From Puniceicoccaceae bacterium (GTDB lineage Bacteria > Verrucomicrobiota > Verrucomicrobiia > Opitutales > Oceanipulchritudinaceae), in the NCBI GenBank assembly GCA_040830765.1, contig JBFOMH010000012.1:31370-95369 (forward strand): a DNA stretch of 64,000 nt. Direction: 5' to 3'. Of this stretch, positions 11,493 through 64,000 are shown piece after piece. The notes under the pieces are model-generated. The model did no database searches, was not told the origin of the DNA, and was given only the letters and a program-made list of their open reading frames with translations. Both the position numbers and the translations under genes were made by a program. Positions within the stretch are counted from its first letter, which is position 1, and the number at the start of each line of letters is the position of its first letter.

Positions 11493-11592
11493 TCAGTCGA
11501 TCAAGAATTCCTCTAAATACCTAGAGATTGTCGCTTCACATGTAAATGAAATAAAGCTGAAAAATAGTGGGTTTCTAATTATAAAACCCGGT

Positions 11593-14423: not shown

Positions 14424-14536
14424 AGCAATGGGCCAGAATGTGGCAATTTACGGCTTGCGGGGCAACAGGGAATTTACGAGCCAGAAAAACCTGATTCCGG
14501 TTACAGGTTGTCATTAGTGACACACAAGTCGTTCCT

Positions 14537-21803: not shown

Positions 21804-22778
21804 TCACCCGGCTTTCTTTTGCCACACCCGGACGTATTCGATTTCAAACTCGACCATTCCGTCGCCTTTGGTGGCCTCGTCTTCATTCAACTCCAGGTCC
21901 TCCGCGCTGGTAGGAATGCCATGCCAGGGGAAGATTTCCATATCGAGCCATATCCGGATGGGAACCGTGGCCACATAGCCGTTGTAGTTCTTGCCCACGT
22001 CGCGGTTCTCGCGCGCCCATGCAGTTGCTTCCTCGGCCGTCACGCTGGAGAACAACTTCCCATCGACATAGTATTTAATTCCCTTTGCGTCCCATTCGAC
22101 TCCATAGACATGGAAGTCATCGGCGACCCGGAAACCAAGATCCTTGCGCTCCGTGTAAGCCGGCTTCCCGTTCAACTTGTCCCAGTCCCGGATCGACCAC
22201 CAGAGCTGGCTGTCGAGGTGGGACTTCTGGCGACCGTCCCCGTACTGCTCGAAGAAATCGAATTCGAATTTTTCGCCCATCGACCAGAATCCGCTGGTGA
22301 CCTGGGCATCGGCGGCCTTGCTCTTGATCTCAATGTATCCATAGAGGAACGGTTTGCGCGACCGGATGCAGGCCGTGGTGATATTTTCATACGGCAGGGG
22401 GTCGCCGAAGACCGGTTTACGTATCTCATCACTGAAGGGAAAGTCGGGTTCCCACTTTGTCTGCAGCTTCAGCTTTCCATCATCCAGGCGATAGTTCCTT
22501 CCGGAGAATTGGGAAGGTGCCCTGCCCTTCCAAACCCACTTCCTGGGGAAATCCGGATCCACGTAGCGTGGCTTCCCTTTCTTGAACTTGCCGACAATGA
22601 ACCAGCGATCCTCGTCGAGGGTTTCGTCTTCAAATTCATCGCTAACGACATCGTCATAGAACCAACCACCAGTATTCTCTGGATCCGAGAGGGGAAGTAC
22701 GTTGGGGACTTCTGCAATTACCGAAGTAGCCAGCGTAAGGAGACAGATTCCCAAGGAAACTGTGAGAAGATTTTTCAT
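21804..22778 (-). CDS. GH16 glycoside hydrolase (red-algal galactanase-like)
   Basis: Signal peptide; PLSDPENTGGW, SDEFE, WKGRAPSQF, FLYGYIE, EFDFFE, EYVRVWQK. Confidence 0.88.
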   Translation of the reverse strand: MKNLLTVSLGICLLTLATSVIAEVPNVLPLSDPENTGGWFYDDVVSDEFEDETLDEDRWFIVGKFKKGKPRYVDPDFPRKWVWKGRAPSQFSGRNYRLDDGKLKLQTKWEPDFPFSDEIRKPVFGDPLPYENITTACIRSRKPFLYGYIEIKSKAADAQVTSGFWSMGEKFEFDFFEQYGDGRQKSHLDSQLWWSIRDWDKLNGKPAYTERKDLGFRVADDFHVYGVEWDAKGIKYYVDGKLFSSVTAEEATAWARENRDVGKNYNGYVATVPIRIWLDMEIFPWHGIPTSAEDLELNEDEATKGDGMVEFEIEYVRVWQKKAG

Positions 22779-47206: not shown

Positions 47207-48616
47207 TTAATCCTCAATGAGGACGGAAACACGTTTCAAGGTCAGGTACTCCTCAAGGCTGTAGCGGGAACAATCCTTGCCTACCCCACTCTGCTTGAGG
47301 CCTCCATGCGGCAATTGGACCGAGTAATGCGGCTCATTGACACAGACGCTGCCGGCCTTGATGTCCCGTGCGGCCCGCAAACCCTTGCCGAGGTCACGAG
47401 TAAAGACGTAAGCGGCCAGTCCATATTCAGTGTTATTGGCCATGGCAATTTCATCATCCGCATCGGTATACTTGATAATAGACAGCACCGGTCCAAAAAC
47501 CTCTTGACGGGCAATATCCATCGATTCGGTGACATCGCGGAGGATGGTCGGTTCCATGAAATATCCCGGGCCATCGACTACTTTGCCACCACAGACCAGT
47601 TCGGCACCATCCCCAATGGCAGCACCAACCAGCCCGAGGATTCCCTGCCGGGCCTTATCGGTCATGACCGGGCCTACCTGGACTGCCTTGGCCAGCTCGC
47701 CAGCCTTGGCGACGAAAGCCTCATAAACGGACTCATGGACGAAGCAGCGGTTGGGGGAAACGCAAACCTGCCCGCAGTTGGCAAACTTGAGGTTGACGAT
47801 CTTCTCCGCCGCGTCTTCCACATTAGCGTCCGGATAAACGACGACCGGTGCATTGCCACCCAACTCAACGGAGAAGTGCTTAACAGTGGTGCAGGATGCT
47901 TCCATGACTTCCAGCCCTGCCCTGGTTGAGCCAATCATGGTCACCAGGGCGGGTATGTCGCTTTGCAGGATCTTGTCAGTAACCCCGTGATCGGTCGTCG
48001 TAATCATGTTCACGACCCCGTCCGGTATACCGGCTTCCCTGGCCAGGTAAGCCACTTCCAGCGAGGCCAGCGGGGTCAACGTTGCCGGCTTGATGATCGC
48101 GCTGCACCCGGACGCAAGGACCGGCCCAAGCTTGTAGCCAACATTCAGTAAGGGAAAGTTCCATGCCAGGAAACCAACCGCCACCCCGAGGGGCTGACGC
48201 TGGATGTAATGCAGGAAGCGGCCGTCAGGGTCATGCAGGACCGGCTGGTCCAGGCGTTCCGCCTCCTCGACAAAGAAACGCAGACAGGTCGTCAACATGC
48301 CGAAGTCGTATTCGGCGTTATCCCGCGGTTTGCCCGTCTCTTCGATTAGGAGGCCGATAATCCGTTCCTGGTTGGCCTCCAGGATGTCGGCATACCTCAG
48401 GATGATGACTCTGCGCTCAGCAGGTGACAGGGCGGACCATTTGTCGAATCCACTTTCAGCCGCCGCCAGGCAGTCGTCCACATGGGTGGCATCAAATTCG
48501 GGGACCTGGCCGATAACCTGACCGGTGGCGGGATTGACCACTTCAATGGCGGCTTCCGTTTCCACGGCTTTGCCGTTTATCAGCATGGGATAGGATTTTT
48601 CTGTTAGGACTTTCAT
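47207..48616 (-). CDS. NAD(P)-dependent aldehyde dehydrogenase (candidate 3,6-anhydrogalactose dehydrogenase)
   Basis: WNFP, IKP, GST, ELGGNAP, catalytic GQVC, EVFGP, GG.KQSG.G. Confidence 0.92.
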   Translation of the reverse strand: MKVLTEKSYPMLINGKAVETEAAIEVVNPATGQVIGQVPEFDATHVDDCLAAAESGFDKWSALSPAERRVIILRYADILEANQERIIGLLIEETGKPRDNAEYDFGMLTTCLRFFVEEAERLDQPVLHDPDGRFLHYIQRQPLGVAVGFLAWNFPLLNVGYKLGPVLASGCSAIIKPATLTPLASLEVAYLAREAGIPDGVVNMITTTDHGVTDKILQSDIPALVTMIGSTRAGLEVMEASCTTVKHFSVELGGNAPVVVYPDANVEDAAEKIVNLKFANCGQVCVSPNRCFVHESVYEAFVAKAGELAKAVQVGPVMTDKARQGILGLVGAAIGDGAELVCGGKVVDGPGYFMEPTILRDVTESMDIARQEVFGPVLSIIKYTDADDEIAMANNTEYGLAAYVFTRDLGKGLRAARDIKAGSVCVNEPHYSVQLPHGGLKQSGVGKDCSRYSLEEYLTLKRVSVLIED

Positions 48617-49755
48617 TCTGTAGTATGAACGGTGAATTGTTTCATGGCGGTCCGGTCCGGTTCCACTCCCAGGCCGGGCGATTCCGGGACCGTGACGGTG
48701 CCGTTGATAATGGAAAGGGATTGCGTGAACATCTCATCCCGCATCGGATTCGGGGTGCGGTCGACCTCCAGACGCGGTGGTTCTACCTCAGCCCGGCCCG
48801 GTTCGACATTGGAAGAGGCAAGAAAGTGCGTTGCCGATGCCAGGTTCAACTGGGTCCCCCAGGCATGCGGGACCACATTGACCCCATGGGAGGAGGCGAT
48901 GGCCCGGATCTTGAGGGCCTCCGTTGGTCCGCCACAATAGGCCAAGTCCGGCTGGATGTATTGAACTCTCCCACGGGTGATCAACTCCTGAAATCCCCAT
49001 CGGGTCTGTTCGCACTCCCCGGTTGCCAGAGGAACATCGACCTTCTCCGAAAGGCTCTTAAACAGGCTCAGGTTTTCCGGGGAGAGCGGTTCCTCGAACC
49101 AGCGGAATCCGCACTCCTCAAGGATACGCCCAACGCGGATTGCCTCCGGCAGGTCAAAGGCGTGGTTGGAATCAGCCATCAGTTGGACCTCCGGGAAGGC
49201 CTTGCGCATTTCCCGGATCTGCTCTTCGTCAAACGCCAGGTTCTTGCCAACTTTGATTTTCAGGGCGCTGAAGCCGGCCTGGACGTAGGTGCTGGCCTCA
49301 TCAATAATTACCCGCAGCAGTTCCGCTTCCGACACCTTGCGGAAATACATGCCCGTGGCATAGCAAGGTACTTCACTGCGCAGCCGTCCCCCCATAAGCT
49401 CGGAAGCAGATACATCGAGCAGCTTTCCCTTCAGGTCCAGCAGGGCCATATCGATTCCGGAAATGGCCCCCATCATGATGCCCTTGCGGGCAAAATCGAG
49501 GGAAGCCCGCCAGCAGTGAGACCAGGCAGCCTCGTTTTTCAAGGGATCCCATCCCTTCAAAAGCGGTGCATAGAAGCTCTCGATGGCGCTTTGCGTTACG
49601 GTAGCGGGTCCGTAGCACTCTCCCCAGCCGGAAGCCCCGGAATCATCGACTACCTCAACCAGCAGCGCATTGCGCTTGTCATAGTGCCACTGGGAGAACC
49701 CGAATGGTTCGTCCAGGGTATGCTGCAGGTGGTATGTCCGGATGCGCTCGATCAT
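48613..49755 (-). CDS. Mandelate racemase/enolase-superfamily enzyme (candidate 3,6-anhydrogalactonate cycloisomerase)
   Basis: GWGE, SGIDMALLDLKGK, KIKVG, DSN, WFEEP, GE, QPD, PH, PGLG. Confidence 0.9.
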   Translation of the reverse strand: MIERIRTYHLQHTLDEPFGFSQWHYDKRNALLVEVVDDSGASGWGECYGPATVTQSAIESFYAPLLKGWDPLKNEAAWSHCWRASLDFARKGIMMGAISGIDMALLDLKGKLLDVSASELMGGRLRSEVPCYATGMYFRKVSEAELLRVIIDEASTYVQAGFSALKIKVGKNLAFDEEQIREMRKAFPEVQLMADSNHAFDLPEAIRVGRILEECGFRWFEEPLSPENLSLFKSLSEKVDVPLATGECEQTRWGFQELITRGRVQYIQPDLAYCGGPTEALKIRAIASSHGVNVVPHAWGTQLNLASATHFLASSNVEPGRAEVEPPRLEVDRTPNPMRDEMFTQSLSIINGTVTVPESPGLGVEPDRTAMKQFTVHTTE

Positions 49756-51494: not shown

Positions 51495-52400
51495 TTACCG
51501 CGGGCCAATGGCGATGAAGCTGAATCCGCCAGCCCAAGCCCGGTTAAAAGACGTGGCCGGCCTCCCGTTGCCCTGCCACATGTAGATGACACAGCGATTG
51601 GGTTCCCAAACGCCTACGGAAATGGTGTAGGGCCGGTCGCCAAAATGCTCGGGTGAAAAGACCACCGCAGGGGTTGTCGGAAAGGCTTCCGTAAAGATGA
51701 CATCAAATCGGCCGTCACTGCTGTTGTTGCGAATTACCGAAAAGCCTTCTCCAACCCGGATGACGGGTTGCCCGTTGACGATATCAACGACTCCACGGAT
51801 GATCCGCATATTGCCGCTGGCCCCCACCGCGCTCAAGGCGGCCAGCGGACCCATGTTGACACTGCCGTCGACGTTAACGTCCCCGTCGACATTGACCACG
51901 GCATCATCCTCGACCTCGGGGGCACCATTGACATCGAGCGTGCCGCGGACCTCAACCGTCTTGGGCTCCTCGTGCTTGAAGAGGACGGTGCTGTTGAAGT
52001 CGTCTGCGCGGAAGGCATGCAAGCTTGTCAGGGATGGCAATAGTTCCTGACGCGGGAGCGGATCGTCGGTCCCAACTTTCAGCTCAAGATACTTATTGCC
52101 GGGGGAGATGCTGAACACATCGCCGAGGTTCCGCTGGGGATTGTTGTTGTCGCTTGGACCAAGGATGACGTTGAAGCGGCCGTCGAGCAGGTCCGCAATA
52201 ATGACCTGGTCACCCCACAACTTGTTCCCCCCCACGGAGGCGTCCCAGAGGGAGAAAGTAATGACGGCGGAGGCATCGGTCACCGGGTCGCCGGCAGCGT
52301 CGGTGAGACGGCCTTGGTAATTGACCTGGGCGGTCGCCATTGTCGCCAGCAGCAAGAGGCCGGCCAGGGCGCTAAAATGAGTTTTCGTATTCTTGGTCAT
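51495..52400 (-). CDS. Secreted tail-fibre-like protein
   Basis: Signal peptide; VNYQGRLTDAAG.P...FSLWD...GG..LW...DGRFNVILG N-domain; V.V.G beta-repeat shaft; C-terminal FDVIF..AF..TPAV...FSFIAIG fibre-tip-like domain. Confidence 0.65.
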   Translation of the reverse strand: MTKNTKTHFSALAGLLLLATMATAQVNYQGRLTDAAGDPVTDASAVITFSLWDASVGGNKLWGDQVIIADLLDGRFNVILGPSDNNNPQRNLGDVFSISPGNKYLELKVGTDDPLPRQELLPSLTSLHAFRADDFNSTVLFKHEEPKTVEVRGTLDVNGAPEVEDDAVVNVDGDVNVDGSVNMGPLAALSAVGASGNMRIIRGVVDIVNGQPVIRVGEGFSVIRNNSSDGRFDVIFTEAFPTTPAVVFSPEHFGDRPYTISVGVWEPNRCVIYMWQGNGRPATSFNRAWAGGFSFIAIGPR

Positions 52401-52421
52401 GACAATGATGGGTTGAATGAA

Positions 52422-55400
52422 TTATTCGACGGTTATCAGGGCGCGCTCGTAATACTGGTGGTCAATAATGATCTGGATATCGATCAGGTCATCGATAATG
52501 AACTGGTTGGGGTCGATGACCAGCCTCCAACGGGTAGCGGCAACGCTTAGTTCCTTGAAGGTTGTAATCTGGAAGCCGGTATCCGCATCGATGCGTTCGA
52601 CTACTTCTGGCACTTCGACCGACTGGGAACTGAAGGCAAAAATCTTGCGGACGCTCCGCCGGTCGAAGACATCAAAGACACCGTCGAAATCGGAATCCTG
52701 ATAGAAACGGAACGGAGCAACAACGAATTCACCGGGAAAGTCGACCTTCCGGGCCACCGGATTGATGCTGACGCCGGTGCTGCGGTCAGGCGCTGGTGGT
52801 ACGCGGGTCCTGAAAAATGTATTACCCGAATAACTCAACGTGCCACCGATGCCATTGTTTCCGGGAATAGTGGGAACCAGGCTCCCCCTGACCATCGCGC
52901 CATCCTCGAACATGAAGTGAACGGCTATCTGGACAACCTTGTCCCGGTAGATTCCAGAAGCGATATCATTCAGGTCTGTGTAATCCGGACCCTTGAAAAA
53001 CTGCCCGATCTCCAAGAGCGTACTGAAGTCGATGGCAATCCTGCCGTTCACGCCTCCTCCAGGACTGGCCGTGGTTTGCTTTTCCCGAAGGATATCACGG
53101 AAGCGCTGCTGCTTGGTGACCATTTTTCTTTTCTTCGGGTCATAGCGAAAGCCCTTGTCAGGGGGAAACGCGCCAAATTCACGATTCACATCGTCAGGAT
53201 TCGGGGTCAGGATGTTGTCCCGCATGGAGATAGTGACCCGGTCAACGGCACCCGAGGCGAACGTCCCGCGGTCCTGGTCGAAGGCCTGCATGTTTCGGTA
53301 AATGTCATCGAGTTCATTGGCATTCCGGGCCTTGAAAATAGTCTCCAGGTTGTAGATTTCACCTGAACCGGTATCCTCGAAGCTGAACCTTTCCTGATAT
53401 TTGTATTCGAGAGCCCTGACGGTGTAGAAAAGCCACCGCTGGGCCCGCCGGAAGGCCGCATCGGCTTCCAGGATGGCGTTTTCCGCCCGCAGGTAATGGA
53501 TTGGATCGGCGTGGTAGCTGTTGGCCAAGAGGGCGCGATCGTCATTGAGGTAATCCTCAAGCCGTTCAATCTCGCGCAGCAGGGCCGTTCGGTCGGCGAT
53601 GGCCTGCCCCAGGGCAGCGGTGTTGTCCCGCTTCTCCAGTAGCAGGGCATGCGCTTCCCTCCGGACAGCTCCCAGTTCAAGTTTCGATTGCTGGACCGTC
53701 AAGGGCAGCTCCGCAGTCGCCAGCTTCGTTTCGAAGGCGATGGCTGCATTATCAATTTGCTTCTCCCTGTTGGCAATGACCGCGCTGGCGAGTGCTTGTT
53801 CCCCGGCGTTGACAACTGCTGCGGTCGCCGTGATCCCACCAAATTCCGGAGATTGCGCGGTGGCGTAAATTCCCGATGTCAAAGCATCGGCTGCCGCAGC
53901 CGTGGCTGAAAAGAAGGCAATTTCATCCCATGCACTGGATGTCGTTCCAAGATAATCGGCCTCGGCAGATGTAATGGAATCGTCGATACCCTCGGCAATC
54001 GTCACGGCTTCAGCCGCGTCAAGGAGGTTTTGCTCCAGTTCCGCCTGCAGGAGCTTCAATGTTTCATTCTGGTCGATGAGCTTATTGATCAATCGCTCCG
54101 CATCGGCCAGTTCGCTGGGGTTGGTCGGATGCGGGTTAATGCCGTCCCAGCCGTTGACCCCTTCATTGTAGTCGTATCCCGTGACCTCGACGAACCGCAG
54201 GGCAAATTCATCCTCAAGTTTGTCCAACTCCAGGGCAGTCTGGGTCGCGGTCTGGCGGTAATTGGCGTAGGTCTGGATGGCGCCGCCGCCCGTCTCCGGA
54301 TTCTCCGGATCCCCGAGCTCTTCCAGCGCCACCGCCAGTGGTCCGATTGGATCGCCATTTTCATCCGTCTTCTTCAGGAGCTCCGAAAGAATATCGTAGG
54401 TGTCGAAGTTGTCCCCACTGGGGGGAGCAAGAATCAGGAAATCCGGATCCAGTCCGAGGATGTTGGCCGTGCCGTTGACAAATCCCCGCAACCGGCTGCT
54501 GACATTCAGTGCTGTATCGACAAGGGAGTAGGCTTGGCGAACTCCACTGGACTCCAGGGCCGGGTCCTCAAAATCGACGGTCGGGAAAATGCCCTTGATA
54601 AGGGTGAACGTATTGACATCCGGCCCCTGGACCTGGGTCAGAAGCTGGCGCGCTTCCGTCTCGTCGCCGGGATTGCGGCGCAGTGCCAGCAATCTGGCCA
54701 ATTCGGTCTTGGCCTGCATAAGCTGCCCGTGTACGGACACGAGGGTGCGGTAATCCTTGTAGCCGGCGAAGATTTGACCGTTAGCGGGATCCGGGTCCGC
54801 CACCAGCAGGACACCTTCATCCGTGGTATAGGTCAGGTCATCCTGAGTCTGGCTCCTTGCCGGGACCCGGGTGGCAAAGATGAAGTAGCCGAAGGGCGCT
54901 CCGGTGAATGCCGGGATGTAGTCACCCGGCTCGACGCCTTCCTCGCTAAAGGAGAGGAATTCCATATACCAGGCAACAGCTGTTCCAAAGACATCGATTA
55001 ACTCGCGGTAGAGCTCAATTTCATCATCGATGACAAAAGGATTGTTGCGGACGCTGAGGCCAAGCCGGACGGTGGCGAGTTCCGCTTTCTGCTTCCGGGC
55101 GAACTGGCTCTCTGCTACCGCGAGATCGTGATAGATATTCAGCAGGGCAATCTGCAGCTCCTGATTGAGCGGGGCACTGGCGAGGGCCTTCCGCAATATC
55201 TCAATCTGGGCACGGGCGGCGATTCGGTCGTCATCCGTAAACCAGGAGGCGGAATTCTCCGCATCTTCAAAAGTGTTTAGGGCAGCCCCTTCCGCATCGT
55301 TGTAGAGAAGCCACTTGTAGCGGAAGGCTCCCCCCTGGGCGGGGTCCTCCATCTGGGAACGCGTCAAGGTGACCCCTTCTGCCCGGTAGCCCGGGGGATA

Positions 55401-55721
55401 GAGGATGTCGTAGACGCCGCTCTGGTCCGGTTTGCGCAGGACAAAGTCCCCCGCCGGCCCGAAGGACTGCACGGTCGCCAGCGGGTGCCCCCACTTCGCC
55501 TCGGAGAGGTAAATGCCGTTGGAACCGGGACCCTTGTCTTCCGGCGCAATAACACCATCGATGAAGTAAACCCCACCCGCTTCTCCGGGTCCGGTCGAGT
55601 TCTGGTAGTCCGGCCGGATGAAGGTAGTTGGATCGATGGCCATGAGAATCCCACTACAAAACACACCGGCCAGAACAAGGGCCGCTGTCGATTGTCGTGT
55701 TCTCAGTCGCGCGAACTTCAT
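52422..55721 (-). CDS. Large secreted coiled-coil protein, TcA/alpha-pore-forming-toxin-like architecture (tentative)
   Basis: 1099-aa ORF with signal peptide; heptad-rich helices flanking an Ala/Gly hydrophobic hairpin; beta-rich C-terminus; ATGA overlap with the upstream gene. The ORF is secure, the function tentative. Confidence 0.6.
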   Translation of the reverse strand: MKFARLRTRQSTAALVLAGVFCSGILMAIDPTTFIRPDYQNSTGPGEAGGVYFIDGVIAPEDKGPGSNGIYLSEAKWGHPLATVQSFGPAGDFVLRKPDQSGVYDILYPPGYRAEGVTLTRSQMEDPAQGGAFRYKWLLYNDAEGAALNTFEDAENSASWFTDDDRIAARAQIEILRKALASAPLNQELQIALLNIYHDLAVAESQFARKQKAELATVRLGLSVRNNPFVIDDEIELYRELIDVFGTAVAWYMEFLSFSEEGVEPGDYIPAFTGAPFGYFIFATRVPARSQTQDDLTYTTDEGVLLVADPDPANGQIFAGYKDYRTLVSVHGQLMQAKTELARLLALRRNPGDETEARQLLTQVQGPDVNTFTLIKGIFPTVDFEDPALESSGVRQAYSLVDTALNVSSRLRGFVNGTANILGLDPDFLILAPPSGDNFDTYDILSELLKKTDENGDPIGPLAVALEELGDPENPETGGGAIQTYANYRQTATQTALELDKLEDEFALRFVEVTGYDYNEGVNGWDGINPHPTNPSELADAERLINKLIDQNETLKLLQAELEQNLLDAAEAVTIAEGIDDSITSAEADYLGTTSSAWDEIAFFSATAAAADALTSGIYATAQSPEFGGITATAAVVNAGEQALASAVIANREKQIDNAAIAFETKLATAELPLTVQQSKLELGAVRREAHALLLEKRDNTAALGQAIADRTALLREIERLEDYLNDDRALLANSYHADPIHYLRAENAILEADAAFRRAQRWLFYTVRALEYKYQERFSFEDTGSGEIYNLETIFKARNANELDDIYRNMQAFDQDRGTFASGAVDRVTISMRDNILTPNPDDVNREFGAFPPDKGFRYDPKKRKMVTKQQRFRDILREKQTTASPGGGVNGRIAIDFSTLLEIGQFFKGPDYTDLNDIASGIYRDKVVQIAVHFMFEDGAMVRGSLVPTIPGNNGIGGTLSYSGNTFFRTRVPPAPDRSTGVSINPVARKVDFPGEFVVAPFRFYQDSDFDGVFDVFDRRSVRKIFAFSSQSVEVPEVVERIDADTGFQITTFKELSVAATRWRLVIDPNQFIIDDLIDIQIIIDHQYYERALITVE

Positions 55722-57058
55722 TGGGCAGAAAGAAATGGGCTTTCCTCGAACGGCATCACCGGAACATCCCGGATAAGAACGAGGGTACCCGACTGGGTAC
55801 GGTTGAGGTAGGTCTTGGATGGATCATCGAGGAAAACCTCCTCGGTGAAGGTGCCTAAAATCCTGGCCCCCGGACCAATTGCCTGGTCGGACTCGGAGTC
55901 ATCCGCTTCCAGGGTCAGGATCCGGCGCATGGCTCCATTGATCAAGCTGAAGCCATTGAAATCCGATGTTTCCACTGGCATGGCTGGCGACACCGCCCGG
56001 AATTGCTCTGCCGTATCGATGACATCCGTTGCTTGCCAAAACCCCTCTGGCGTATCCGGGACAAGTCCGTTGCTGAGCGAACTTTGGCCACCGTCCAACT
56101 CCGGCATTCCATCTTCACTCCCAACGACAAATGCGATCTCGCTTCCCTGTCCGGATTGCCTGAGAATGCGTAAACGGAACAACCGCTCGGAAGTCGCATC
56201 CTTGGCCACTCCTGTCCAATAGGCATCGTTATCAAAGAGCAGAACCGTGTGGGAGGCCCGGCCGGCCCGGCGGTAAAACGAGCCCGGTGGCGGCTCCGCA
56301 CTGAGGTCGATGAGCAGCCGCCGCACGTCCTTGATGACAAGATCATCGACAATGGAGATGTCGATCGTCGCCTCGGTTCCGTTGACGAGAATTGTCCCGC
56401 TGAGGGCTGTATAATCCTCCCCAGCGATGGCGGTGCTGCTGGCACTGACACTATAGGCCACGTTGCCCGTAAAGAATTCATCGAATTCCAGGGTGACCGT
56501 ATGGGTGGTGGCATCCCCTTCCGTAAAAGAGGAGAGCGACTCCTTGAACTGGACCGCCGGCAGGTCGGCCAGCGTGGGGAAGACTTCCGCATTCAAGGGA
56601 TCGGTCCCGAGGGAGATCTCCAGCCCATCATTGAATCCGTCCCAGTCGGTGTCGAAGCGGGCCGGGTCGGTAGCGGGTGTCTCCGGGTCCTCCTCGTAGG
56701 CGGTAGGGAGTCCGTCGTTATCCGGATCCAGGCCGGTGCCGAGTACCAGACCGACGACCTGGAAGAACTGTCCGTCGACCTTCTCCAGTGGAATCCGTGC
56801 CTGGAACTGGTTACTGCCCAGCTCGGAAAAGGTAGCCCCGAAGTCCTCATACCAGCTCTGCAGCGCTTCTGAATAGAGGACTTCCAGACCGGCGATTTCC
56901 GTTCCCATCGGCTTGAGATCAACAAGGACCATCCCCTGCTCCACCCGGACATCGATTACCTCGACATCCGCAGTTAGGGTCCCAGAAGCAAAAACCAGAC
57001 AGGCAATCACGAATAGACGCAGATGACGGAACCGGAGACTGTCTTTCAATCTTCGCAT
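55718..57058 (-). CDS. Secreted protein with TSP3-like Ca-binding repeats and Calx-beta domain
   Basis: DPDNDGL, DTDWDGFNDGLEISLGTDPL; TAIAGEDY..LSGT....GTEATIDISIVDD. Confidence 0.78.
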   Translation of the reverse strand: MRRLKDSLRFRHLRLFVIACLVFASGTLTADVEVIDVRVEQGMVLVDLKPMGTEIAGLEVLYSEALQSWYEDFGATFSELGSNQFQARIPLEKVDGQFFQVVGLVLGTGLDPDNDGLPTAYEEDPETPATDPARFDTDWDGFNDGLEISLGTDPLNAEVFPTLADLPAVQFKESLSSFTEGDATTHTVTLEFDEFFTGNVAYSVSASSTAIAGEDYTALSGTILVNGTEATIDISIVDDLVIKDVRRLLIDLSAEPPPGSFYRRAGRASHTVLLFDNDAYWTGVAKDATSERLFRLRILRQSGQGSEIAFVVGSEDGMPELDGGQSSLSNGLVPDTPEGFWQATDVIDTAEQFRAVSPAMPVETSDFNGFSLINGAMRRILTLEADDSESDQAIGPGARILGTFTEEVFLDDPSKTYLNRTQSGTLVLIRDVPVMPFEESPFLSAQ

Positions 57059-57210
57059 GCAGAGAGGACTGCTAGGAAATTAGGCGGCTGCCTGATAAAA
57101 TCAATGAAATTCCCTAATAGCGCTCATCAGGCCCGCTAAAACGCAAAGTGTACCATAAGACTGCTCCCGCCTTGGCATCCAACAGGCCAAATGGGTAGGA
57201 ATGGTCTACC

Positions 57211-59349
57211 ATGCCAACCCATGCCTGTTTCATTAACCATGCATCCAGTCTAACTCGGTGGACCCTTCTCGTGCTCGGTACACTGGCCTTGCAACTGGTC
57301 TCAAGTGCCGAAGACCCACCCGCCTTCAGCTTCTCCACCGAGGTCAAGCGGCCGGACATGACCAGGGAGGCCAAGGACACCGCCCCGAAGTACAACCCGA
57401 CGGCCCACATCCGCAAAACGACGAAGGAGGAAGCAGGCAACTACACGAAAAGGGACCTCCTGCAGAAGCGTTATTCTGGTGAGGCAATTCTCGGGGCGAT
57501 TATCGATCCGACTACCTTCCGTCCCTACCCGCCGGCCGGTGATGCCGCCTACCAGGCCCTGCCGGAAGAGGAACGGGCCGCCATCATCGAGGCGGCGGAG
57601 GCATTCCTCGATCACGACTGGCCGACCCTGCGGGCCACCGACTACCTGCACTTCTATGAGACCGGTTCACAGGTTGGTTTCCAGAAGATATACATGGACC
57701 GCCTGAAGACGCTCGAGACGCTCCTTTATGCCGAAATCCTGGAAGGTGAAGGCCGCTTTGTCCGGGACATTGCCAATGGGGTCTGGGCGCTCTGTGAGCA
57801 GACGTCTCTGGCCCAGCCGGCCCACTTGAACGTCGAGCTGCCCGGTGCGGGTATGCCTTCCCTCGACCACCCCATCCTTGCCCTCCTGGCCTGCGAGGCG
57901 GCTGTCCTCATGGCCACTGCGGATTACTTCTTCAGGGAAGAACTGGATGCCCTCCACCCAGAGTTCCGCAAGCGGATGCGCTACGAGGTCAACCGCCAGA
58001 TCCTGACCCCCTACCTCGAGCGGACCGACTACTGGTGGATGGCCTATGAGAAGCCCTTTACCAACAACTGGAATCCCTGGATCACTTCCAACTACCTGCT
58101 CTGCGCCATCGTCTTCAGCGAGTCCCGGGAGGAACTGGTTCCCCACGTCGTCAAGGCCGTCGATGTCCTCGACCGCTTTCTCAACGTCTATCCGGAGGAC
58201 GGGGGCTGCGAGGAAGGCCCCGCCTACTGGAACCATGCCGGTGGCCGTCTCCTTGATTGCCTTGAGTTGCTGGGTGCGGCGACAGGCGGCCTGATTGATC
58301 TCTACGACGAGCCGCTGGTCCGCGAGATGGGCGAATTCATGTGGTACAGCAGCATCCATCCGCCCTGGTATGTGAACTTCGCTGATGCCTTTGCCCGCTA
58401 CACCCCGGAGGCAACCACCCTTTTCCGCTACGGCAAGGCGGTCGGGAGTGAGAACCTGATGGCCTTCGCCACCACCATGCCGGTCAAGCCCTACCTCTCC
58501 AGTTGGCGGCTCGAGAGCGTCTATTTCCGCCAGTTGCCGGCCATCGCCATTCGGAAGGAATTGCTGGATTACGATCGCCCATTCGAGCCCTCCACCTTCG
58601 TTGCCCTGCCCGACCTCGAGACCGCCTATGTCCGCCAGAGCACGGATACCGGCAGCGGTTTCTACCTTGCCGCCAAGGGAGGCTATAACGCCGAGAGCCA
58701 CAATCATAACGATATCGGCAACTTCATCATCTTCCTCGATGGCGAGCCGCTGCTCATCGACACCGGCGTCGGCACCTATACCTCCAAGACCTTCAGCGAA
58801 CAGCGTTACGAAATCTGGTCCATGCAGAGCAGCTACCACAACCTCCCCGACATCAATGGCCAGCCGCAGCCACACATGATCCAGTGGCGTAGTGACTTTT
58901 TTGAGACACGGCATTCAGAGGATGGGGCGACGATCAAGATCGGCATCACCTCCGCCTATCCGGAGGCGGCCAACCTGGCCGACTATACCCGCACCCTGCG
59001 GTTTGACCGCTCCAGTGAACGGATCTCCATACTCGATTCCTTCGCCTTTCGCGATGGCAACGAATCCGCTGGCAGGAATTCCATCACCTTCCACTTCATG
59101 ACCCACCATGTCCCCTCCCCCGGCAGTGAACCGGGACAGGTCCTCCTGACCCATCCGGAGACCGGCACCGACCGGGCCATCCTCAGTTGCCCAACGGACC
59201 TCGGGATTTCGATTAACAAGATCGTCCTTAAGGATCCCCGCATGGCCGAAAGCCGGGGCGACACCCTCTACCGGATCGTCGTCCAGGCGGAAGTGCCCGG
59301 GGAATCCCTCACCACCGGCTTCCAGTTCAGCATTGGCCGTGCAGAATAG
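57211..59349 (+). CDS. Heparinase II/III-domain protein (putative polysaccharide lyase)
   Basis: NNWNPWI, DGGCEEGPAYW, KGGYNAESHNHNDIGNF, DTGVGTY, W.MQSSYHN.P. Confidence 0.85.
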   Translation: MPTHACFINHASSLTRWTLLVLGTLALQLVSSAEDPPAFSFSTEVKRPDMTREAKDTAPKYNPTAHIRKTTKEEAGNYTKRDLLQKRYSGEAILGAIIDPTTFRPYPPAGDAAYQALPEEERAAIIEAAEAFLDHDWPTLRATDYLHFYETGSQVGFQKIYMDRLKTLETLLYAEILEGEGRFVRDIANGVWALCEQTSLAQPAHLNVELPGAGMPSLDHPILALLACEAAVLMATADYFFREELDALHPEFRKRMRYEVNRQILTPYLERTDYWWMAYEKPFTNNWNPWITSNYLLCAIVFSESREELVPHVVKAVDVLDRFLNVYPEDGGCEEGPAYWNHAGGRLLDCLELLGAATGGLIDLYDEPLVREMGEFMWYSSIHPPWYVNFADAFARYTPEATTLFRYGKAVGSENLMAFATTMPVKPYLSSWRLESVYFRQLPAIAIRKELLDYDRPFEPSTFVALPDLETAYVRQSTDTGSGFYLAAKGGYNAESHNHNDIGNFIIFLDGEPLLIDTGVGTYTSKTFSEQRYEIWSMQSSYHNLPDINGQPQPHMIQWRSDFFETRHSEDGATIKIGITSAYPEAANLADYTRTLRFDRSSERISILDSFAFRDGNESAGRNSITFHFMTHHVPSPGSEPGQVLLTHPETGTDRAILSCPTDLGISINKIVLKDPRMAESRGDTLYRIVVQAEVPGESLTTGFQFSIGRAE

Positions 59350-59514
59350 GGGTAATCGGGTAAAAATAGCGCCTTCATGAAAAATTTAGCGGTCGTAACC
59401 TGATTTTCGCAAACGCCGCATTGACGAATAGGGAATAATGCCTATTCGTACTTTTAAGGCTCCAACGTGGGCTGTTCCTAACAACAGAAAAATACAACTT
59501 CAGGGATAGTGATT

Positions 59515-60219
59515 ATGAATAAAAGGTTACTTATTGCTGCCGGCAGCCTGCTGGCGCTCGTCTCAACCGCCACGGCCCAAGTGCTGCAAACGGCCACCAC
59601 CTCCAACAACATTGAACCCGGTGGTCCGGGTGACAGAACAGAGTACTACGGGTCCGGTGCCGATGATGGCTTCGAGGAATATGGCATTGCCACCTTTACC
59701 ACTTTCACCGGAGCCCAATTCGGCGGATCCCTGACCGACATCACCAGCGCTACCTACAGCCTCACGGTCAACGACCGGAGCTTCAGCGATGGCACGCAGT
59801 TCCGCCTCGTCCTCTCCACCGACCAGTTCGGGGGCAATTATTCCGCACTCAGTTTTGATAGTGCCTTCAATGCTGAAAATGGACTCAATCCCGCCCACTA
59901 TACCAATCCGGTTCATGACCTTGGCGTCTACGACCTCGGTGCCGATATGGGTACCTTCCCCGGTGGGACTGTGCTCGACTTTTCCCTTAATCTCGATGCC
60001 TCGGCCGAGAGCGCCCTCATTGCAGCCATCAATGCCGGTAACGAGTTCAGCCTCAGCATCCATGCCGTCAATGTCTCCGACGACATTACCTTCTCCGGAG
60101 TTGGCAACACCTTCGACCCGGGTGATCCGGCCCTGACGATTGTCCCGGAGCCGTCCACCTACGCCATGCTCCTCGGCCTTGCCGGGCTCGCCCTGGTCAT
60201 GATCCGGCGCCGCCGCTAA
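59515..60219 (+). CDS. PEP-CTERM sorting domain protein
   Basis: Signal peptide; C-terminus VPEPSTYAMLLGLAGLALVMIRRRR. Confidence 0.93.
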   Translation: MNKRLLIAAGSLLALVSTATAQVLQTATTSNNIEPGGPGDRTEYYGSGADDGFEEYGIATFTTFTGAQFGGSLTDITSATYSLTVNDRSFSDGTQFRLVLSTDQFGGNYSALSFDSAFNAENGLNPAHYTNPVHDLGVYDLGADMGTFPGGTVLDFSLNLDASAESALIAAINAGNEFSLSIHAVNVSDDITFSGVGNTFDPGDPALTIVPEPSTYAMLLGLAGLALVMIRRRR

Positions 60220-60241: not shown

Positions 60242-60272
60242 AAACCCCATCGCCCCGGCGGTGGGGTTTTTT
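60242..60272 (+). terminator. Rho-independent terminator
   Basis: AAACCCCATCGCC-C-CGGCGGTGGGGTTT hairpin followed by T-run. Confidence 0.85.
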
Positions 60273-60276
60273 GTTA

Positions 60277-60404
60277 TAACCACGGAATACGCGAAACACA
60301 CGAAACCCAATCCCCCTTCCGTGCTATTCCGTGTCTTCCGTGGTTGAAATCCCCATTCGCGGCATCCTAGTTAAATTCAGGCACCCGCTGGCCTTGCCCG
60401 GCGC
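60277..60404. repeat. Array repeat copy 1 (~125 bp)
   Basis: AACCACGG...CCGTGGTT hairpin + GAAATCCCCATTCGCGGCATCCTAGTTAAATTCAGGCACCCGCTGGCCTTGCCCG. Confidence 0.92.
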
Positions 60405-60473
60405 AACAACGTCCTCAGCATAAGGGGCATGTCCTTTCTTGACGCCCCCCGCTCCGTATATACATTGTATCGT

Positions 60474-60713
60474 ATGAAGACACGAGTGGCGAAGTGGGGC
60501 AACAGCCTGGCGTTGCGGCTGCCGAAGGCGCTGGCGGAGACGCACGGCCTGGAGGCGGGGAGCGAAGTGGAGTTGACCGAAGAAGGAGACGTTATCCTGT
60601 TGCGCCGGACCGGAAAGCGATACGAGCTGGCGGAGTTATTGAAGGGCGTGAGGCCGGGCAACCGGCACAGCGAAGTGGAGACAGGTGAACCCGTTGGGAA
60701 GGAAGCCTGGTGA
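60474..60713 (+). CDS. mazE: AbrB/MazE-family antitoxin
   Basis: MKTRVAKWGNSLALRLPK, YELAELL, GEPVGKEAW; GTGA overlap with toxin. Confidence 0.92.
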   Translation: MKTRVAKWGNSLALRLPKALAETHGLEAGSEVELTEEGDVILLRRTGKRYELAELLKGVRPGNRHSEVETGEPVGKEAW

Positions 60714-61048
60714 GCCGCTATGTTCCCAGTTCGGGAGATTTGGTCTGGTTGACGTTCACCCCGCAAGCCGGCCATGAGCAAGCTGGCCATCGGCCGGCAC
60801 TTGTCATATCGCAAAAGAGCTACAACCAGCGGACCGGCCTGGCGTTGTTTTGCCCACTCACCTCCCGGGCAAAGGGCTACCCGTTTGAGGTGGAATGCAG
60901 GGGAACGAAAGTGAATGGGGTCGTCCTTGCCGATCAGGTCAAGAGCCTTGACTGGAAGGTCCGTAATGCCAGGCGTATTGAATCCGCACCCGATGGGGTC
61001 CTGGAAGAGGCACTAGCCAAGCTGAAGGCACTGCTCCCAGCGGATTGA
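60710..61048 (+). CDS. mazF: MazF/PemK-family endoribonuclease toxin
   Basis: GDLVWLTFTPQAGHEQAGHRPALVIS, CPLTS, KGYPFEV, DQVKSLDW. Confidence 0.94.
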   Translation: MSRYVPSSGDLVWLTFTPQAGHEQAGHRPALVISQKSYNQRTGLALFCPLTSRAKGYPFEVECRGTKVNGVVLADQVKSLDWKVRNARRIESAPDGVLEEALAKLKALLPAD

Positions 61049-61082
61049 GAATTCCATTCGCGCCCTTCGTAGTTTCTATTTG

Positions 61083-61205
61083 TAACCACGAAATACACGA
61101 AACACACGAAACCATTCCCCCTTCCGTGCTATTCCGTGTCTTCCGTGGTTAAAATCCCCATTAGCGGCATCCTAGTTAAATTCAGGCACCCGCTGCCCTT
61201 GCCCG
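61083..61205. repeat. Array repeat copy 2
   Basis: Near-identical to 60277-60400. Confidence 0.92.
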
Positions 61206-61268
61206 CTGCCCATGTCTCGCCACAGGATCGGCTTTGACATGTTCTCCACGAAATTCGAAACTGTCCGG

Positions 61269-61427
61269 ATGAAGCGATTTACCGCGGTCATCGAGCGCTG
61301 TACCGATACCGGCCTTTATGTTGGCTATGTCCCGGGACTCCCCGGCGCTCATACCCAGGCCGCTTCCCTCGATGAACTGAAAAGCAATCTCGAAGAGGTT
61401 ATCGCCCTCATATTAAACCACAGATAA
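61269..61427 (+). pseudogene. HicB-family antitoxin, apparently truncated; no hicA partner
   Basis: MKRFTAVIERCTDTGLYVGYVPGLPGAHTQAASLDELKSNLEEVIALIL; the frame runs into repeat copy 3 and stops at 52 aa. Confidence 0.7.
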
Positions 61428-61535
61428 CACGAATCCCTCGAATCCAATCCCCCTTCCGTGTTTTCTGTGTCTTCCGTGGTTGAAATCCCCAATCGCGGCA
61501 TCGTAGTTAAATTCAGGCACCCGCAACCCTTGCCG
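61415..61535. repeat. Array repeat copy 3 (left arm diverged)
   Basis: AAACCAC...TCTTCCGTGGTTGAAATCCCCAATCGCGGCATCGTAGTTAAATTCAGGCACCCGCAACCCTTGCCG. Confidence 0.9.
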
Positions 61536-61602
61536 CAGCGACTGCTGATTCCGATCCTCTCAATCCTGTCCGGATTGCTTGACACCTCGTTTTGAATTCA
61601 GC

Positions 61603-61938
61603 ATGTTAGATTTCAAGTTCTTTGAGTACGATTCCCAAAAGAGCGCCAGCAACCTGGCCAAGCATGGAATCGATTTTGAAGAAGCCCGGGAGCTGTGGAG
61701 CGGTCCCTGCGTGGAATACTCCCTGCCCTATTCCCATGAAAAGCGCTTCATGGTGATCGGTCGCCTGGGCGACAAATTCTGGAGCGCTACCATTACTTAT
61801 CGTCATGAAGTCATCCGCATCATCTCAGTCCGCCGGGCACGCCAAAAGGAAATTGCCCAATGGAAGCACCATATCCATCAGGAAGGGCCATGTAACCAGC
61901 CTCGACGGGAAACAGACGATCCCCCTTCAGGAGTTTGA
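61603..61938 (+). CDS. BrnT-family toxin
   Basis: FEYDSQKSASNLAKHGIDFEEA, EKRF, IRIISVRRAR..E. Confidence 0.88.
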   Translation: MLDFKFFEYDSQKSASNLAKHGIDFEEARELWSGPCVEYSLPYSHEKRFMVIGRLGDKFWSATITYRHEVIRIISVRRARQKEIAQWKHHIHQEGPCNQPRRETDDPPSGV

Positions 61939-62158
61939 CCGCCTGTTTGACGAGGGTTCGGATGCCATTGATGCATTTATCGACTATGCCAACCCGCGCA
62001 TCCGCCACGGGGGTGCCCGGCCTGGCGCCGGTCGCAAGCCCTCCGGCCGGCGCCAGTTCACAATCCGGCTAAAACCGGAGATTCATGCCAAGCTGAAACA
62101 ACGCGCCCGCGCCCGCCAGCAAACTCTCGCCGAATACATCGAGAGCTTCGCCGGATAA
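61853..62158 (+). CDS. BrnA-like/ribbon-helix-helix antitoxin (start uncertain)
   Basis: EFDRLFDEG..I, GGARPGAGRKP, TIRLKPEIHAKLKQRA...TLAEYI; overlaps brnT 3' end. Confidence 0.7.
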   Translation: MPNGSTISIRKGHVTSLDGKQTIPLQEFDRLFDEGSDAIDAFIDYANPRIRHGGARPGAGRKPSGRRQFTIRLKPEIHAKLKQRARARQQTLAEYIESFAG

Positions 62159-62163
62159 GGGAG

Positions 62164-62219
62164 AAACCACTCGTACAATTCCTAGTTAAATTCGGGTACC
62201 CGCCGCCCTTGCCCGGCGC
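62164..62219. repeat. Array repeat copy 4 (hairpin absent, core retained)
   Basis: AAACCAC-9nt-TCCTAGTTAAATTCGGGTACCCGCCGCCCTTGCCCGGCGC. Confidence 0.85.
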
Positions 62220-62316
62220 CCAGTCCGGCCCGAAGAATATGCGCATGCCCGAGGCTCCTCACCTTCGTCACGACAAACCGTTTGACGCGACGTATAGTTT
62301 TTCTAATATGTACGTC

Positions 62317-62553
62317 ATGCAGCGAAAACTGACACTACGGATGGACGACGCGGTCATTCGCAAGGCCAAGCGGCTGGCGCGGAAGCGGGGTCAGTCGGTC
62401 TCCAGACTGGTCAGTGACTACGTGACCCGGGCCATTGAGGACGACAGAACGGCTCTTCCGCCGCAGACCGCTGCGATGGTTGGCATCCTCGGCAAGTCGA
62501 CCGATCTCACCGAAGCCGACTACCGGAAACATCTGGAGGAGAAACACCTGTGA
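62317..62553 (+). CDS. Ribbon-helix-helix antitoxin (DUF6364-like)
   Basis: MQRKLTLRMDDAVIRKAKRLARKRGQSVSRLVSDY, DYRKHLEEKHL; GTGA overlap with PIN gene. Confidence 0.85.
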   Translation: MQRKLTLRMDDAVIRKAKRLARKRGQSVSRLVSDYVTRAIEDDRTALPPQTAAMVGILGKSTDLTEADYRKHLEEKHL

Positions 62554-62948
62554 AGGTGATGCTCGACACGAATGTCATCCTTGATGTCTGGTTGGCCCGG
62601 GAACCCTTCTGGCGCGACTCCGCCAACCTCCTTGCCCGGATCGAGCGTAAGGAGCTGACGGGCGTCATCTGTCCGACCACTGTCACCACCCTACATTATT
62701 TGGCCCGGAAGGCCCTTGGCGAGCGCAAGGCCCGGCGCCTGGTCGGACAGCTGCTCGGCCTCTGCACAGTCGGCCGGGTCTCGGGGAAGACCCTGGAAAC
62801 CGCCCTCGAGAGCAAGGTCAAGGACTTCGAGGATGCCGTCATTGAGGCTGTCGCCCAGTCCAGCCGCGTCGATGTCATTGCCACCCGCGATCTGCGCGAC
62901 TTCCGTCACTCCCGCATCCCCGTCCGCGAACCCGACAAGGTGGACTGA
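62550..62948 (+). CDS. PIN-domain (VapC-like) toxin
   Basis: VMLDTNVILD, DFEDAV, IATRD.RDF. Confidence 0.9.
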   Translation: MKVMLDTNVILDVWLAREPFWRDSANLLARIERKELTGVICPTTVTTLHYLARKALGERKARRLVGQLLGLCTVGRVSGKTLETALESKVKDFEDAVIEAVAQSSRVDVIATRDLRDFRHSRIPVREPDKVD

Positions 62949-63074
62949 CTGGATTGATTAGCCTTGCTTTAGTGCCTAATCAGCCATTCTAATGAGGTAT
63001 GCCCGAATGGCACCCGCAGGCCAGCGCTTAGGAGGCGTAGCGGCCCGTTGAATCACCGAACCAAGGATACGTAC

Positions 63075-64000
63075 ATGAAGACGCACATTTCCCCATTCCT
63101 GAAGAGAACCGCCACCGCCCTGGCCTTGTTAATCCTGGCAGTCCCGCTCCACGCCGGAAGCGAGGGCGGCCAGCTGTTTGAGGACCTTGGCGATTACCGC
63201 CGGGACATGACGACCGATTCGGCGGAGGCCCAGGCCCTGTTCGACCAGGGGATCCAGCTCCTTTATGGATTTAACCACGACGAAGCGATCCGCTCCTTCC
63301 ATCTCGCGGCGGAGAAGGATCCCACCGCGGCCATGCCATGGTGGGGCATCGCCTATGCCCACGGGGTCAATATCAACGACCCGCAAATGACCGATGAGCG
63401 CTCCAAGGCGGCCCGCGAGGCAGCCGACAAGGCAATCGCCCTTGCCGGTTCGGCGACACCCGAGGAGAAGGCGCTCATCAAGGCGGTCTCTGCCCGTTAC
63501 GAGTGGCCGGCCCCTGAGGACCGCAAGCCCCTCGACCAGGCCTACGCCGATGCCATGCAGAAGGCCTGGGAGGCATTCCCCGATGATGTCGATATCGGGT
63601 CCATCTACGCCGACGCCCTGATGAACCTGCAACCGTGGGATTACTGGACCCATGATGGCGAGCCGAAGGGCCGGGTCCTGGAAATCGTCGAGGTGCTGGA
63701 GGATGTGCTGTCCAAGAACAAGGACCACCCGGGCGCCAACCATTTCTATATCCACACCGTCGAGGCCTCGAAGAATCCCGACCGCGCGGTTCCCGCTGCC
63801 GACCGTCTGAGCACCCTCGTACCGGGCTCCGGACACCTGGTGCACATGCCCTCGCATATTTACATCCGGGTCGGCCGCTATGCCGATGCCGTCGATTCCA
63901 ACAAGCAGGCCGTCGAGGTGGACCGGGCCTATTTTAAAATCGCCCCACCCCCGTCGATTTATGCCATTTACTACGCCCACAACCTGCACTTCCTCTGCTA
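63075..64000 (+). CDS. Secreted TPR-repeat protein (runs off the window end; absent from the ORF track)
   Basis: ATG at 63075 after AAGGA; MKTHISPFLK signal, AQALFDQG..LLYGFNHDEAIRSF, WWGIAYA.G.NIN, HPGANHFYIH..E, GHLVHMPSHIY. Confidence 0.88.
   Translation, partial: MKTHISPFLKRTATALALLILAVPLHAGSEGGQLFEDLGDYRRDMTTDSAEAQALFDQGIQLLYGFNHDEAIRSFHLAAEKDPTAAMPWWGIAYAHGVNINDPQMTDERSKAAREAADKAIALAGSATPEEKALIKAVSARYEWPAPEDRKPLDQAYADAMQKAWEAFPDDVDIGSIYADALMNLQPWDYWTHDGEPKGRVLEIVEVLEDVLSKNKDHPGANHFYIHTVEASKNPDRAVPAADRLSTLVPGSGHLVHMPSHIYIRVGRYADAVDSNKQAVEVDRAYFKIAPPPSIYAIYYAHNLHFLC

Follow-up and report, generated by a model that had tools for sequence, protein, structure and literature searches.

The stretch of DNA analysed here (64,000 nt of contig JBFOMH010000012.1 from a Puniceicoccaceae bacterium, referred to below as the window) carries near its right-hand end, at 60.2–63.0 kb, an array of small toxin–antitoxin (TA) modules that are separated by copies of a composite repeat unit. 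A repeat-punctuated, co-oriented array of unrelated TA modules is what the original prediction, made from the letters of the sequence, had described, and repeat search, pattern matching, nhmmer and Pfam agree on it. Three full repeat units and one that lacks its hairpin lie between the co-oriented modules, all on the + strand, and the modules follow one another in the order mazEF, truncated hicB, brnT with a ribbon–helix–helix (RHH) gene, and DUF6364/PIN, which Pfam assigns to four unrelated TA families. The setting is chromosomal, in a marine member of the Opitutales, with heparinase II/III-like and PEP-CTERM genes at the left of the array and a TPR gene at its right (Pfam). From a comparison with a closely related genome we propose, tentatively, that the units may be the recombination sites of a cassette array.

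The first module (60474..61048, +) consists of mazE (60474–60713; MazE_antitoxin, 2e-14) and mazF (60710–61048; PemK/MazF, 3e-26). It is followed by a truncated hicB-like fragment of 52 aa (61269..61427, +) that is not accompanied by hicA; its match to UPF0150/HicB-like (2.5e-05) is under the curated cut-off, and its open reading frame (ORF) reads into the third repeat unit and finds its stop codon there. The third module (61603..62158, +) pairs brnT (61603–61938; BrnT, 8e-22) with an RHH antitoxin ORF (61805–62158; RHH ‘HicB family’ C-terminus, 2e-04). The sole ATG, GTG or TTG start of this ORF lies 134 nt inside brnT in another frame, and its start codon is uncertain. The last module (62317..62948, +) is made up of a DUF6364 antitoxin gene (62317–62553; DUF6364, 4e-20) and a PIN_3 toxin gene (62550–62948; PIN_3, 4e-23). 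Adjoining small antitoxin and toxin genes with the domains of their families, as expected of type II TA systems, are present in mazEF, brnT/RHH and DUF6364/PIN_3. Promoter-like sites were found by scanning for two of the four modules (60439–60466 for mazEF and 62282–62309 for DUF6364/PIN), and TTGACA boxes could be read in the sequence for the other two (61234–61239 for hicB and 61579–61584 for brnT). When the whole array was compared with plasmids by blastn there was one match (201 bp, 68%, inside mazF, from a Novosphingobium plasmid), and the same comparison with phages gave nothing.

Alignment of the four window units (w1–w4, here units 1–4) with three units from the related genome (L7A, L7B and L7C, here units A–C; alignment A2) gives the anatomy of the repeat. 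From left to right a unit comprises a box that we call M-left, a T-rich spacer of ~9 nt, a hairpin of 55–69 nt, a second box (M-right), a 21-nt core and the terminal CCCTTGCC(C)G, so that a full unit occupies about 130–165 bp. The M box is 21–23 nt long (M-left consensus CCCCATTCGCGCCATTCGTAGTT), and M-right is a repeat of the same box. The hairpin is closed by AAC...GTT, has inverted arms of 28 nt and carries three heptads per arm with a spacing of 9–10 bp (CACGRAA on the left arm, TTCCGTG or ATTCGTG on the right arm). The repeat had originally been put at ~120 bp and called structured; the element is larger and more composite than this, with the M-left box added upstream. Its right edge is as sharp as had been claimed, conservation in the alignment stopping at CCTTGCC(C)G with ~12 nt of a weaker GC pattern beyond. 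The hairpin is followed on its right by 55 nt that are not palindromic and are conserved as strongly as the hairpin itself.

Unit 1 (60266–60400, +) has its hairpin (AAC...GTT, with 3 × CACGRAA on the left and 3 × TTCCGTG on the right) at 60278..60345, and its right-hand part (60351..60400, +) contains M-right at 60351–60372, the core at 60368–60388 and the right edge ...CCTTGCCCG. The M-left position of this unit is occupied by a GC hairpin with a T run (60242..60269, +; 12-pair stem), which is terminator-like, lies 3' of the PEP-CTERM gene and is only loosely alignable with the M-left boxes. Unit 2 (61050–61205, +), which like units 1 and 3 was recovered by repeat search, pattern matching and nhmmer, has an M-left box matching the pattern CCATTCGCG-N7-TAGTT exactly (61054..61074, +), a hairpin at 61084..61150 (fold z −4.1 on the top strand and −4.8 on the bottom strand) and M-right, core and right edge at 61156..61205 (+; core at 61173–61193). 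Unit 3 (61409..61536, +; hairpin 61416–61481, core 61504–61524) has no M-left and starts with ATATTAAACCAC, as does unit A. Unit 4 (62162..62215, +; core profile E 7.6e-15) is hairpin-less and consists of the foot AACCAC, an M box at 62167–62187, the core at 62183–62203 and CCCTTGCCCG. It reads, from its remaining letters, as the product of a hairpin deletion between ..CCAC and ..CCAT; the 55-nt non-palindromic part is still present, the core has 2 substitutions, and the M box has diverged, with 18/21 pattern positions kept. The M-left boxes lie 5 nt from the preceding stop codon in the case of mazF and 35 nt in the case of hicA in the related genome, and when M-right and the core were searched together as a profile, the three best matches outside its seven source units fell exactly on the three M-left positions (61050–61074 in the window, E 0.34, and 16128–16151 and 16802–16824 in the related locus; E 0.16–0.34 overall). 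A possible remnant of the repeat had also been reported at 63009. The 13/14 match is there, in what would be a degenerate terminal unit (62985..63022, +; CCATTC ... GGCACCCGCAGGCC), but it is doubtful and as a copy of the repeat unproven: an unrelated 13/14 match occurs at 55476 on the − strand, and both the nhmmer unit profile (E up to 10) and the core profile (E up to 50) missed it.

With up to three mismatches allowed, the core TAGTTAAATTCRGGYACCCGC has four matches in the window, all on the + strand at 60368–62203 and hence within 1.9 kb; the rest of the 64 kb and 100 shuffles gave none. The repeat search returned a 97-nt family (60304–60400, 61109–61205 and 61440–61536, the second and third copies having 95% and 78% identity to copy 1) and a 43-nt family that adds the fourth copy (62180–62222); the nhmmer unit profile gave E values of 1e-46 to 8e-43 for the three full units and 8.6e-07 for the core-only copy. 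For comparison seven related loci (L001–L007, ~109 kb) were fetched with the heparinase protein as query, all of them from Opitutales, Opitutaceae or Puniceicoccaceae metagenome-assembled genomes (MAGs), which brings the total examined to ~173 kb. Over this sequence the unit and core profiles found units only in the window array and at the syntenic place in one relative (7/7 copies), and the six more distant loci (L001–L006) are without units, arrays or TA genes of these families. The 21-mer core is identical or nearly so in 4/4 window units, even in unit 4 where the hairpin is lost and the M box has diverged, and this argues for constraint on the core. The cores in the relative have drifted, a pattern that would fit a system still constrained in the window genome and decaying in the other. 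A 47-aa open frame runs across the unit, for which a peptide search gave no candidate, although gene callers may skip such ORFs. The literature, searched non-exhaustively, yielded only work on integrons and dif modules and nothing on Puniceicoccaceae.

All six hairpins (three from the window and three from the relative) are more stable as the bottom (minus) strand, with DNA and RNA parameters alike. The consensus fold is −22.8 kcal/mol for the bottom strand versus −14.6 kcal/mol for the top, and the individual RNA folds range from −20.5 to −34.1 kcal/mol for the minus strand versus −12.9 to −24.7 kcal/mol. There are 11 G:T pairs on the bottom strand versus 2 on the top, and the GC skew of the top strand is negative in 6/6 (−0.15 to −0.39). 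Pairing is conserved in 91.7% of cells, compared with 35–46% on sliding.

The relative with units (JBFOLZ010000056.1, L007 of the set) is a Puniceicoccaceae MAG that carries three of them at the same locus as the window array, all direct on the gene strand. Over the core genes at 51.8–57.2 kb the two genomes have 93–98% DNA identity (protein 96–98% just upstream of the heparinase gene). The heparinase gene itself (57211..59349, +; Pfam Hepar_II_III_C, 1.5e-12) shows ~76% DNA identity (73–85% over 57201–58993) and 75% protein identity, and homology ends 60 bp before its stop codon; such a diverged allele beside the array gives the impression of having arrived by homologous replacement. The PEP-CTERM gene (59509..60219, +; Pfam PEP-CTERM, 1.6e-05), between the heparinase gene and unit 1, has no tblastn match in the seven related loci, and the TPR-repeat gene of the right flank (63075..64000, +; Pfam), which extends past the end of the window, was not seen in the relative within the 8.4 kb fetched downstream. 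The order there is unit A (beginning 13 bp past the stop codon of the preceding gene), an RCC1 gene, a 3' remnant of hicA, unit B, hicB–hicA, unit C and a convergent gene with Ig/PKD domains. The same repeat family is thus found at the same locus with different contents in two close relatives, an RCC1 gene and an intact hicBA in one as against mazEF, truncated hicB, brnTA and PIN in the other, which is the kind of difference that a comparison of the locus between relatives had been expected to reveal. The RCC1-repeat gene (12428–16051; 1207 aa, 3.6 kb), with 19 RCC1 repeats and a TSP3 repeat, lies between two units, and as it is far larger than the TA modules and unrelated to them the cargo of the array is not only addiction modules. 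The hicA of the relative is recognized by Pfam at 3e-18, and hicB is the only module common to both genomes; mazEF, brnTA, DUF6364/PIN and PEP-CTERM gave no match at the related locus. The last ~30 nt of hicA together with the next ~45 nt are duplicated in the relative (16066–16140 versus 16738–16812, 76% identity). The duplicate is the hicA remnant directly 3' of the RCC1 gene and has the same 35-nt spacer to unit B, and judging by this sequence it is evidently the relic of a second hicBA module.

The shared hicB module allows the positions at which the two arrays part company to be located. The promoter and coding DNA of hicB have 4 mismatches in 194 columns between the two genomes (98% identity), as far as the cut in the window copy. 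The unit to the left of hicB (unit 2 versus unit B) shows 71% identity and belongs to different subtypes, with arms of the TTCCGTG type in the window and of the ATTCGTG type in the relative, and the switch from ~70% to 98% identity falls within ~12 nt past CCCTTGCCCG, the right edge of the unit. The derived characters ATAACACGAAT and GTGTTTTCTGTG are present only in units 3 and C, the units to the right of hicB(A), and unit 3 is the best window hairpin match of unit C (0.82). The identity switch at the right edge and the characters shared by units 3 and C suggest that a unit travels with the module on its left. The simplest account of these alignments would be that the unit belongs to the left-hand module and that exchange takes place at the right edge, as with integron cassettes; unit 2 would then have come with mazEF and unit B with a former copy of hicBA, and units 3 and C would be the hicBA module's own site. 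The M boxes were also examined as possible attL/attR ends: M-box variants are common to both ends of two modules in the relative (GTCGTT/GTCGTT and TTCGTAGTT/TTCGTAGTT), and in the two testable window modules the variants do not match at both ends.

The reading that we prefer, to which we would assign a probability of roughly 0.45, is that the 3' units are the recombination sites of a cassette array whose enzyme is encoded elsewhere, the arrangement being integron-like with a site that fails the tests for attC. A cassette would be a self-promoted small module, here a type II TA pair, with a composite unit at its 3' end, and the unit would be the target of a site-specific recombinase whose gene lies at another place in the genome. 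Crossover at or just past the right edge would allow blocks of ‘genes plus 3' site’ to be excised, inserted or replaced. Either a tyrosine recombinase that works on folded DNA or an HUH nuclease would be compatible with the bias towards the bottom strand and with the sharpness of the breakpoints at the foot of the hairpin. We infer that an enzyme acts on the unit, and likewise the strand or form of the unit that it would use and a role for the TA modules in stabilizing the array. The gene-shuffling array of the original prediction is upheld as regards its modularity, the differing contents in the relative and the switch at the unit edge, but it does not hold for every boundary, as some module ends are imprecise.

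Several observations weigh against a cassette array. Recombinase, transposase, HUH and integrase domains are all absent from the 124 window ORFs searched (50, and all 74 others of 110 aa or more), as had been said earlier of recombinases, and no inverted-repeat core site was seen at the inferred crossover. Some junctions are imprecise: the homology of the truncated hicB to the intact hicB of the relative ends at ...GCCCTCAT (61411), the gene being cut inside its coding sequence at ...CTCAT beside a sequence that resembles the spacer, and the RCC1 gene directly adjoins the remnant of hicA, so illegitimate events also shape the array. The presumably orthologous units 3 and C are only 76–82% identical, far under the 93–98% background, so that units either change rapidly or undergo conversion, which makes the 71% identity of units 2 and B a weaker argument. 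Covariation in the hairpin is not above that of shuffles, the observed values being reached in 147–237 of 500, and as the pairing is nevertheless kept a folded single strand and inverted protein sites on duplex DNA are not distinguishable. The distribution of the unit is that seen in ~173 kb, with two genomes carrying an array, and an exact search with the 21-mer core against 185,579 species genomes gave 0 matches, the source genome with this core not being in the collection.

The imprecise junctions and the lack of an enzyme gene nearby would both be accommodated by a serious rival that we nevertheless regard as unlikely, namely a dispersed non-autonomous repeat (REPIN/BIME-, MITE- or PATE-like) that would have spread into the short intergenic gaps of a TA island, at a hypervariable locus whose contents have changed by ordinary homologous or illegitimate recombination. 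Families of the REP/REPIN–RAYT, BIME/ERIC and MITE kinds are imperfect palindromes of ~60–130 nt that are extragenic, often 3' of genes and homogenized within a genome; REPINs are mobilized in trans by an HUH enzyme, and such families have tens to hundreds of scattered copies. The units share with them the imperfect palindrome in extragenic DNA, the 28-nt inverted arms recalling a small foldback element, and they also show fast evolution together with homogenization within a genome (units 1 and 2 are 94–95% identical, cross-genome pairs 59–82%). The diverged heparinase allele (76% against the 93–98% background) points in the same direction, as it suggests homologous replacement of the whole region. 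Unlike a REP family, however, the units have 7/7 copies in one syntenic array, with no copy outside the array in 62 kb of the window or in the six more distant loci and none in the closer relative other than at the syntenic array; the equally conserved 55-nt right-hand part is kept in unit 4, which has lost the hairpin, and the identity switch falls at the unit edge. A MITE reading of the hairpin was rejected, since the arms are inverted but the flanks of the hairpin feet in the alignment (TTAT/GAAA, TTGT/AAAA, ATTA/GAAA, ATTA/TAAA, TGAT/AAAA and ATTC/TAAT) contain no constant target-site duplication. An IS200/IS605-derived PATE would have a subterminal hairpin at each end and was likewise rejected, each junction having a single hairpin except junction 4, which has none. 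A further parallel is found in Neisseria, in the NIME/dRS3 arrays and minimal mobile elements. There, NIME repeats of 50–150 bp are flanked by dRS3 boxes, which are inverted repeats and phage integration targets, and form arrays next to variable gene cassettes that lie between conserved genes. The M box–hairpin–M box layout of the units is similar to this; the phylum and the sequences differ, and we know of no dRS3-type phage or Piv-type enzyme for the window array.

We consider it improbable that the units belong to a true integron as divergent attC sites, in which case the locus would be a cluster of attC sites lacking integron-integrases (CALIN) with IntI elsewhere. The likeness is nonetheless considerable at the level of the array: small co-oriented cassettes each have a 3' hairpin site, the sites are similar within the array, the TA cassettes have their own promoters, the content differs between close relatives and the enzyme may be non-adjacent. 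In the relevant sections of Cury et al. (2016; PMC4889954) half of CALINs are in genomes without IntI and Verrucomicrobia encode integrons, among them Coraliomargarita akajimensis (Puniceicoccales), whose genome contains an In0 as well as a complete integron with 3 attC sites. TA cassettes are described there as typical of chromosomal integrons (see also PMC13108822), and a passage of Nivina et al. (2016; PMC5027507) treats them as exceptions to the promoterless rule. The hairpins themselves (55–69 nt) have the AAC...GTT triplet at the base in 5/6 (unit B has ACC), and bottom-strand stability, G:T pairs and enrichment in purines, G in particular, are found in 6/6, the same bottom-strand asymmetry as is reported for attC sites (Nivina et al., 2016). 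Judged by the remaining defining features of attC, as set out in parts of the same two papers, the resemblance fails. The R'' box (RYYYAAC) is matched in 1/6 hairpins and R' (GTTRRRY) in 0/6, the R' sequences being GTTGAAA, GTTAAAA, GTTGAAA, GTTTAAA, GTTAAAA and GTTTAAT. There is no unpaired central spacer, the stem running 9–10 bp from the triplet (9 continuous pairs and then a 2 × 2 loop in the bottom-strand consensus, 10–11 in minimum free energy folds). The attC sites of C. akajimensis, by contrast, are ordinary ones of 56–60 nt with 5-nt non-complementary spacers (PMC4889954, supplement file 12, in part), and the window unit bears no resemblance to them. Extrahelical bases in attC are on the arm opposite the bottom-strand AAC according to a section of PMC5027507, and here the side is reversed, 4/6 copies having one surplus unpaired base on the bottom strand's 5' (AAC) arm and 2/6 having arms of equal length. 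The boundary is also in the wrong place: a G|TT crossover would give the 68 nt to the right of it to the hicB cassette, yet these are ~70% identical as against 98% beyond, identity of 98% starting, on the right-hand side, only ~68 nt from the hairpin GTT and ~45 nt from the core GTTAAAT. The two M boxes, the 21-nt core and the heptad periodicity are additions with no attC counterpart.

A dif-type site was rejected. As described in portions of PMC6449649, dif sites are of 28 bp (11-6-11) with palindromic inner arms and are inverted around modules, and Acinetobacter pdif sites bound small modules, including TA pairs, that shuffle between replicons by means of recombinases encoded elsewhere (see also part of PMC13141974). 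In the M box and core the best 11-N6-8-11 dyads match at 6–8 of 11 positions, which is the mode of shuffles (7 in 307 and 8 in 102 of 500), and the four window units and three units of the relative are all direct. What the array has in common with pdif modules is a repeated site on the borders of small accessory modules, TA pairs among them; it differs in that the window units are of ~130 bp, direct and chromosomal, pdif being plasmid-borne. The statement of the original prediction that the repeat is neither a canonical attC nor a canonical dif therefore stands, the spacer, R-box, boundary and dyad tests all having failed.

The units would have no role in DNA rearrangement at all if they were cis-acting expression elements (a 3' stabilizer or insulator hairpin with a shared upstream operator, or an antisense RNA). 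We consider this very unlikely: a hairpin does lie in the 3' untranslated region of every module, the core is 30–70 nt upstream of the next promoter and the minus-strand RNA fold is much the stronger, but there is no Rfam match to a family at E up to 1 (the sole match, E 0.39 inside the DUF6364 gene, is due to chance), no run of T following the hairpin, whichever strand is read, no promoter-like site inside the unit and no significant covariation, and block-wise turnover at the unit edges would be left unexplained. A sigma-54 promoter reading of GGCAC..TTGC was rejected by eye, the spacing being 4 nt too long for the consensus, and a tRNA T-arm reading of GGTTGAAATCC was rejected on account of a G at the invariant C position, ARAGORN finding 0 tRNA or tmRNA genes. 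Least probable of all are passive leftovers of one tandemly duplicated spacer with genes later replaced inside the copies and no function, for although units 1 and 2 are 94–95% identical and the 3' end of hicA is duplicated together with a unit in the relative, the TA genes found between the copies belong to four unrelated families, 4/4 units have kept the 21-mer core while neighbouring bases have diverged, and the family is older than the split of the two genomes and still tied to module borders.

The chromosome around the array contains many sulfatase, GH16 and TonB-receptor genes, and the window differs from the relative at other places. A block of ~37 kb (14446–51802) is absent from the relative, in which its flanks (10233–14446 and 51802–59288) are 366 bp apart. 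Its genes encode sulfatases, GH16 and GH127 enzymes, a TonB-dependent receptor, sugar transporters, 2-keto-3-deoxy-6-phosphogluconate (KDPG) aldolase and kinase and an IclR/AraC regulator; it is a polysaccharide-utilization island, present or absent between close relatives, and no repeat units were found at its edges. Inside a stretch of 85–97% identity, a patch at 11131–12018 has 74–81% identity to the relative and spans a response-regulator gene (11100–11492, −) and the start of a metallophosphatase gene. At four places (8896–10284, −; 1240–1677, +; 21807–22778, −; 48616–49755, −) the real gene lies on the opposite strand to, or in an overlapping frame with, the longest ORF. These genes encode a glutamyl/glutaminyl-tRNA synthetase, GcvH, a GH16 and an enolase-superfamily enzyme respectively, so that picking the longest ORF misannotates this GC-rich window.

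It is possible, though somewhat unlikely, that the array represents an undescribed cassette system of Verrucomicrobiota, in which exchange at a hotspot is carried out by an enzyme acting in trans that belongs to neither IntI/attC nor XerCD/dif. Integrons and dif modules are, to our knowledge, the two established ways of stockpiling small accessory genes between recombination sites. If the units are indeed recombination sites of a cassette array, they would constitute a third type of site, in another phylum, and would imply that cassette arrays have evolved repeatedly; the 21-mer core and the unit profile would then provide a handle for finding the enzyme by co-occurrence, and with it a new pair of site and recombinase. 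On a more modest reading, two genomes that are ~95% identical offer at this locus a clear natural case of addiction and defence modules being turned over block by block.

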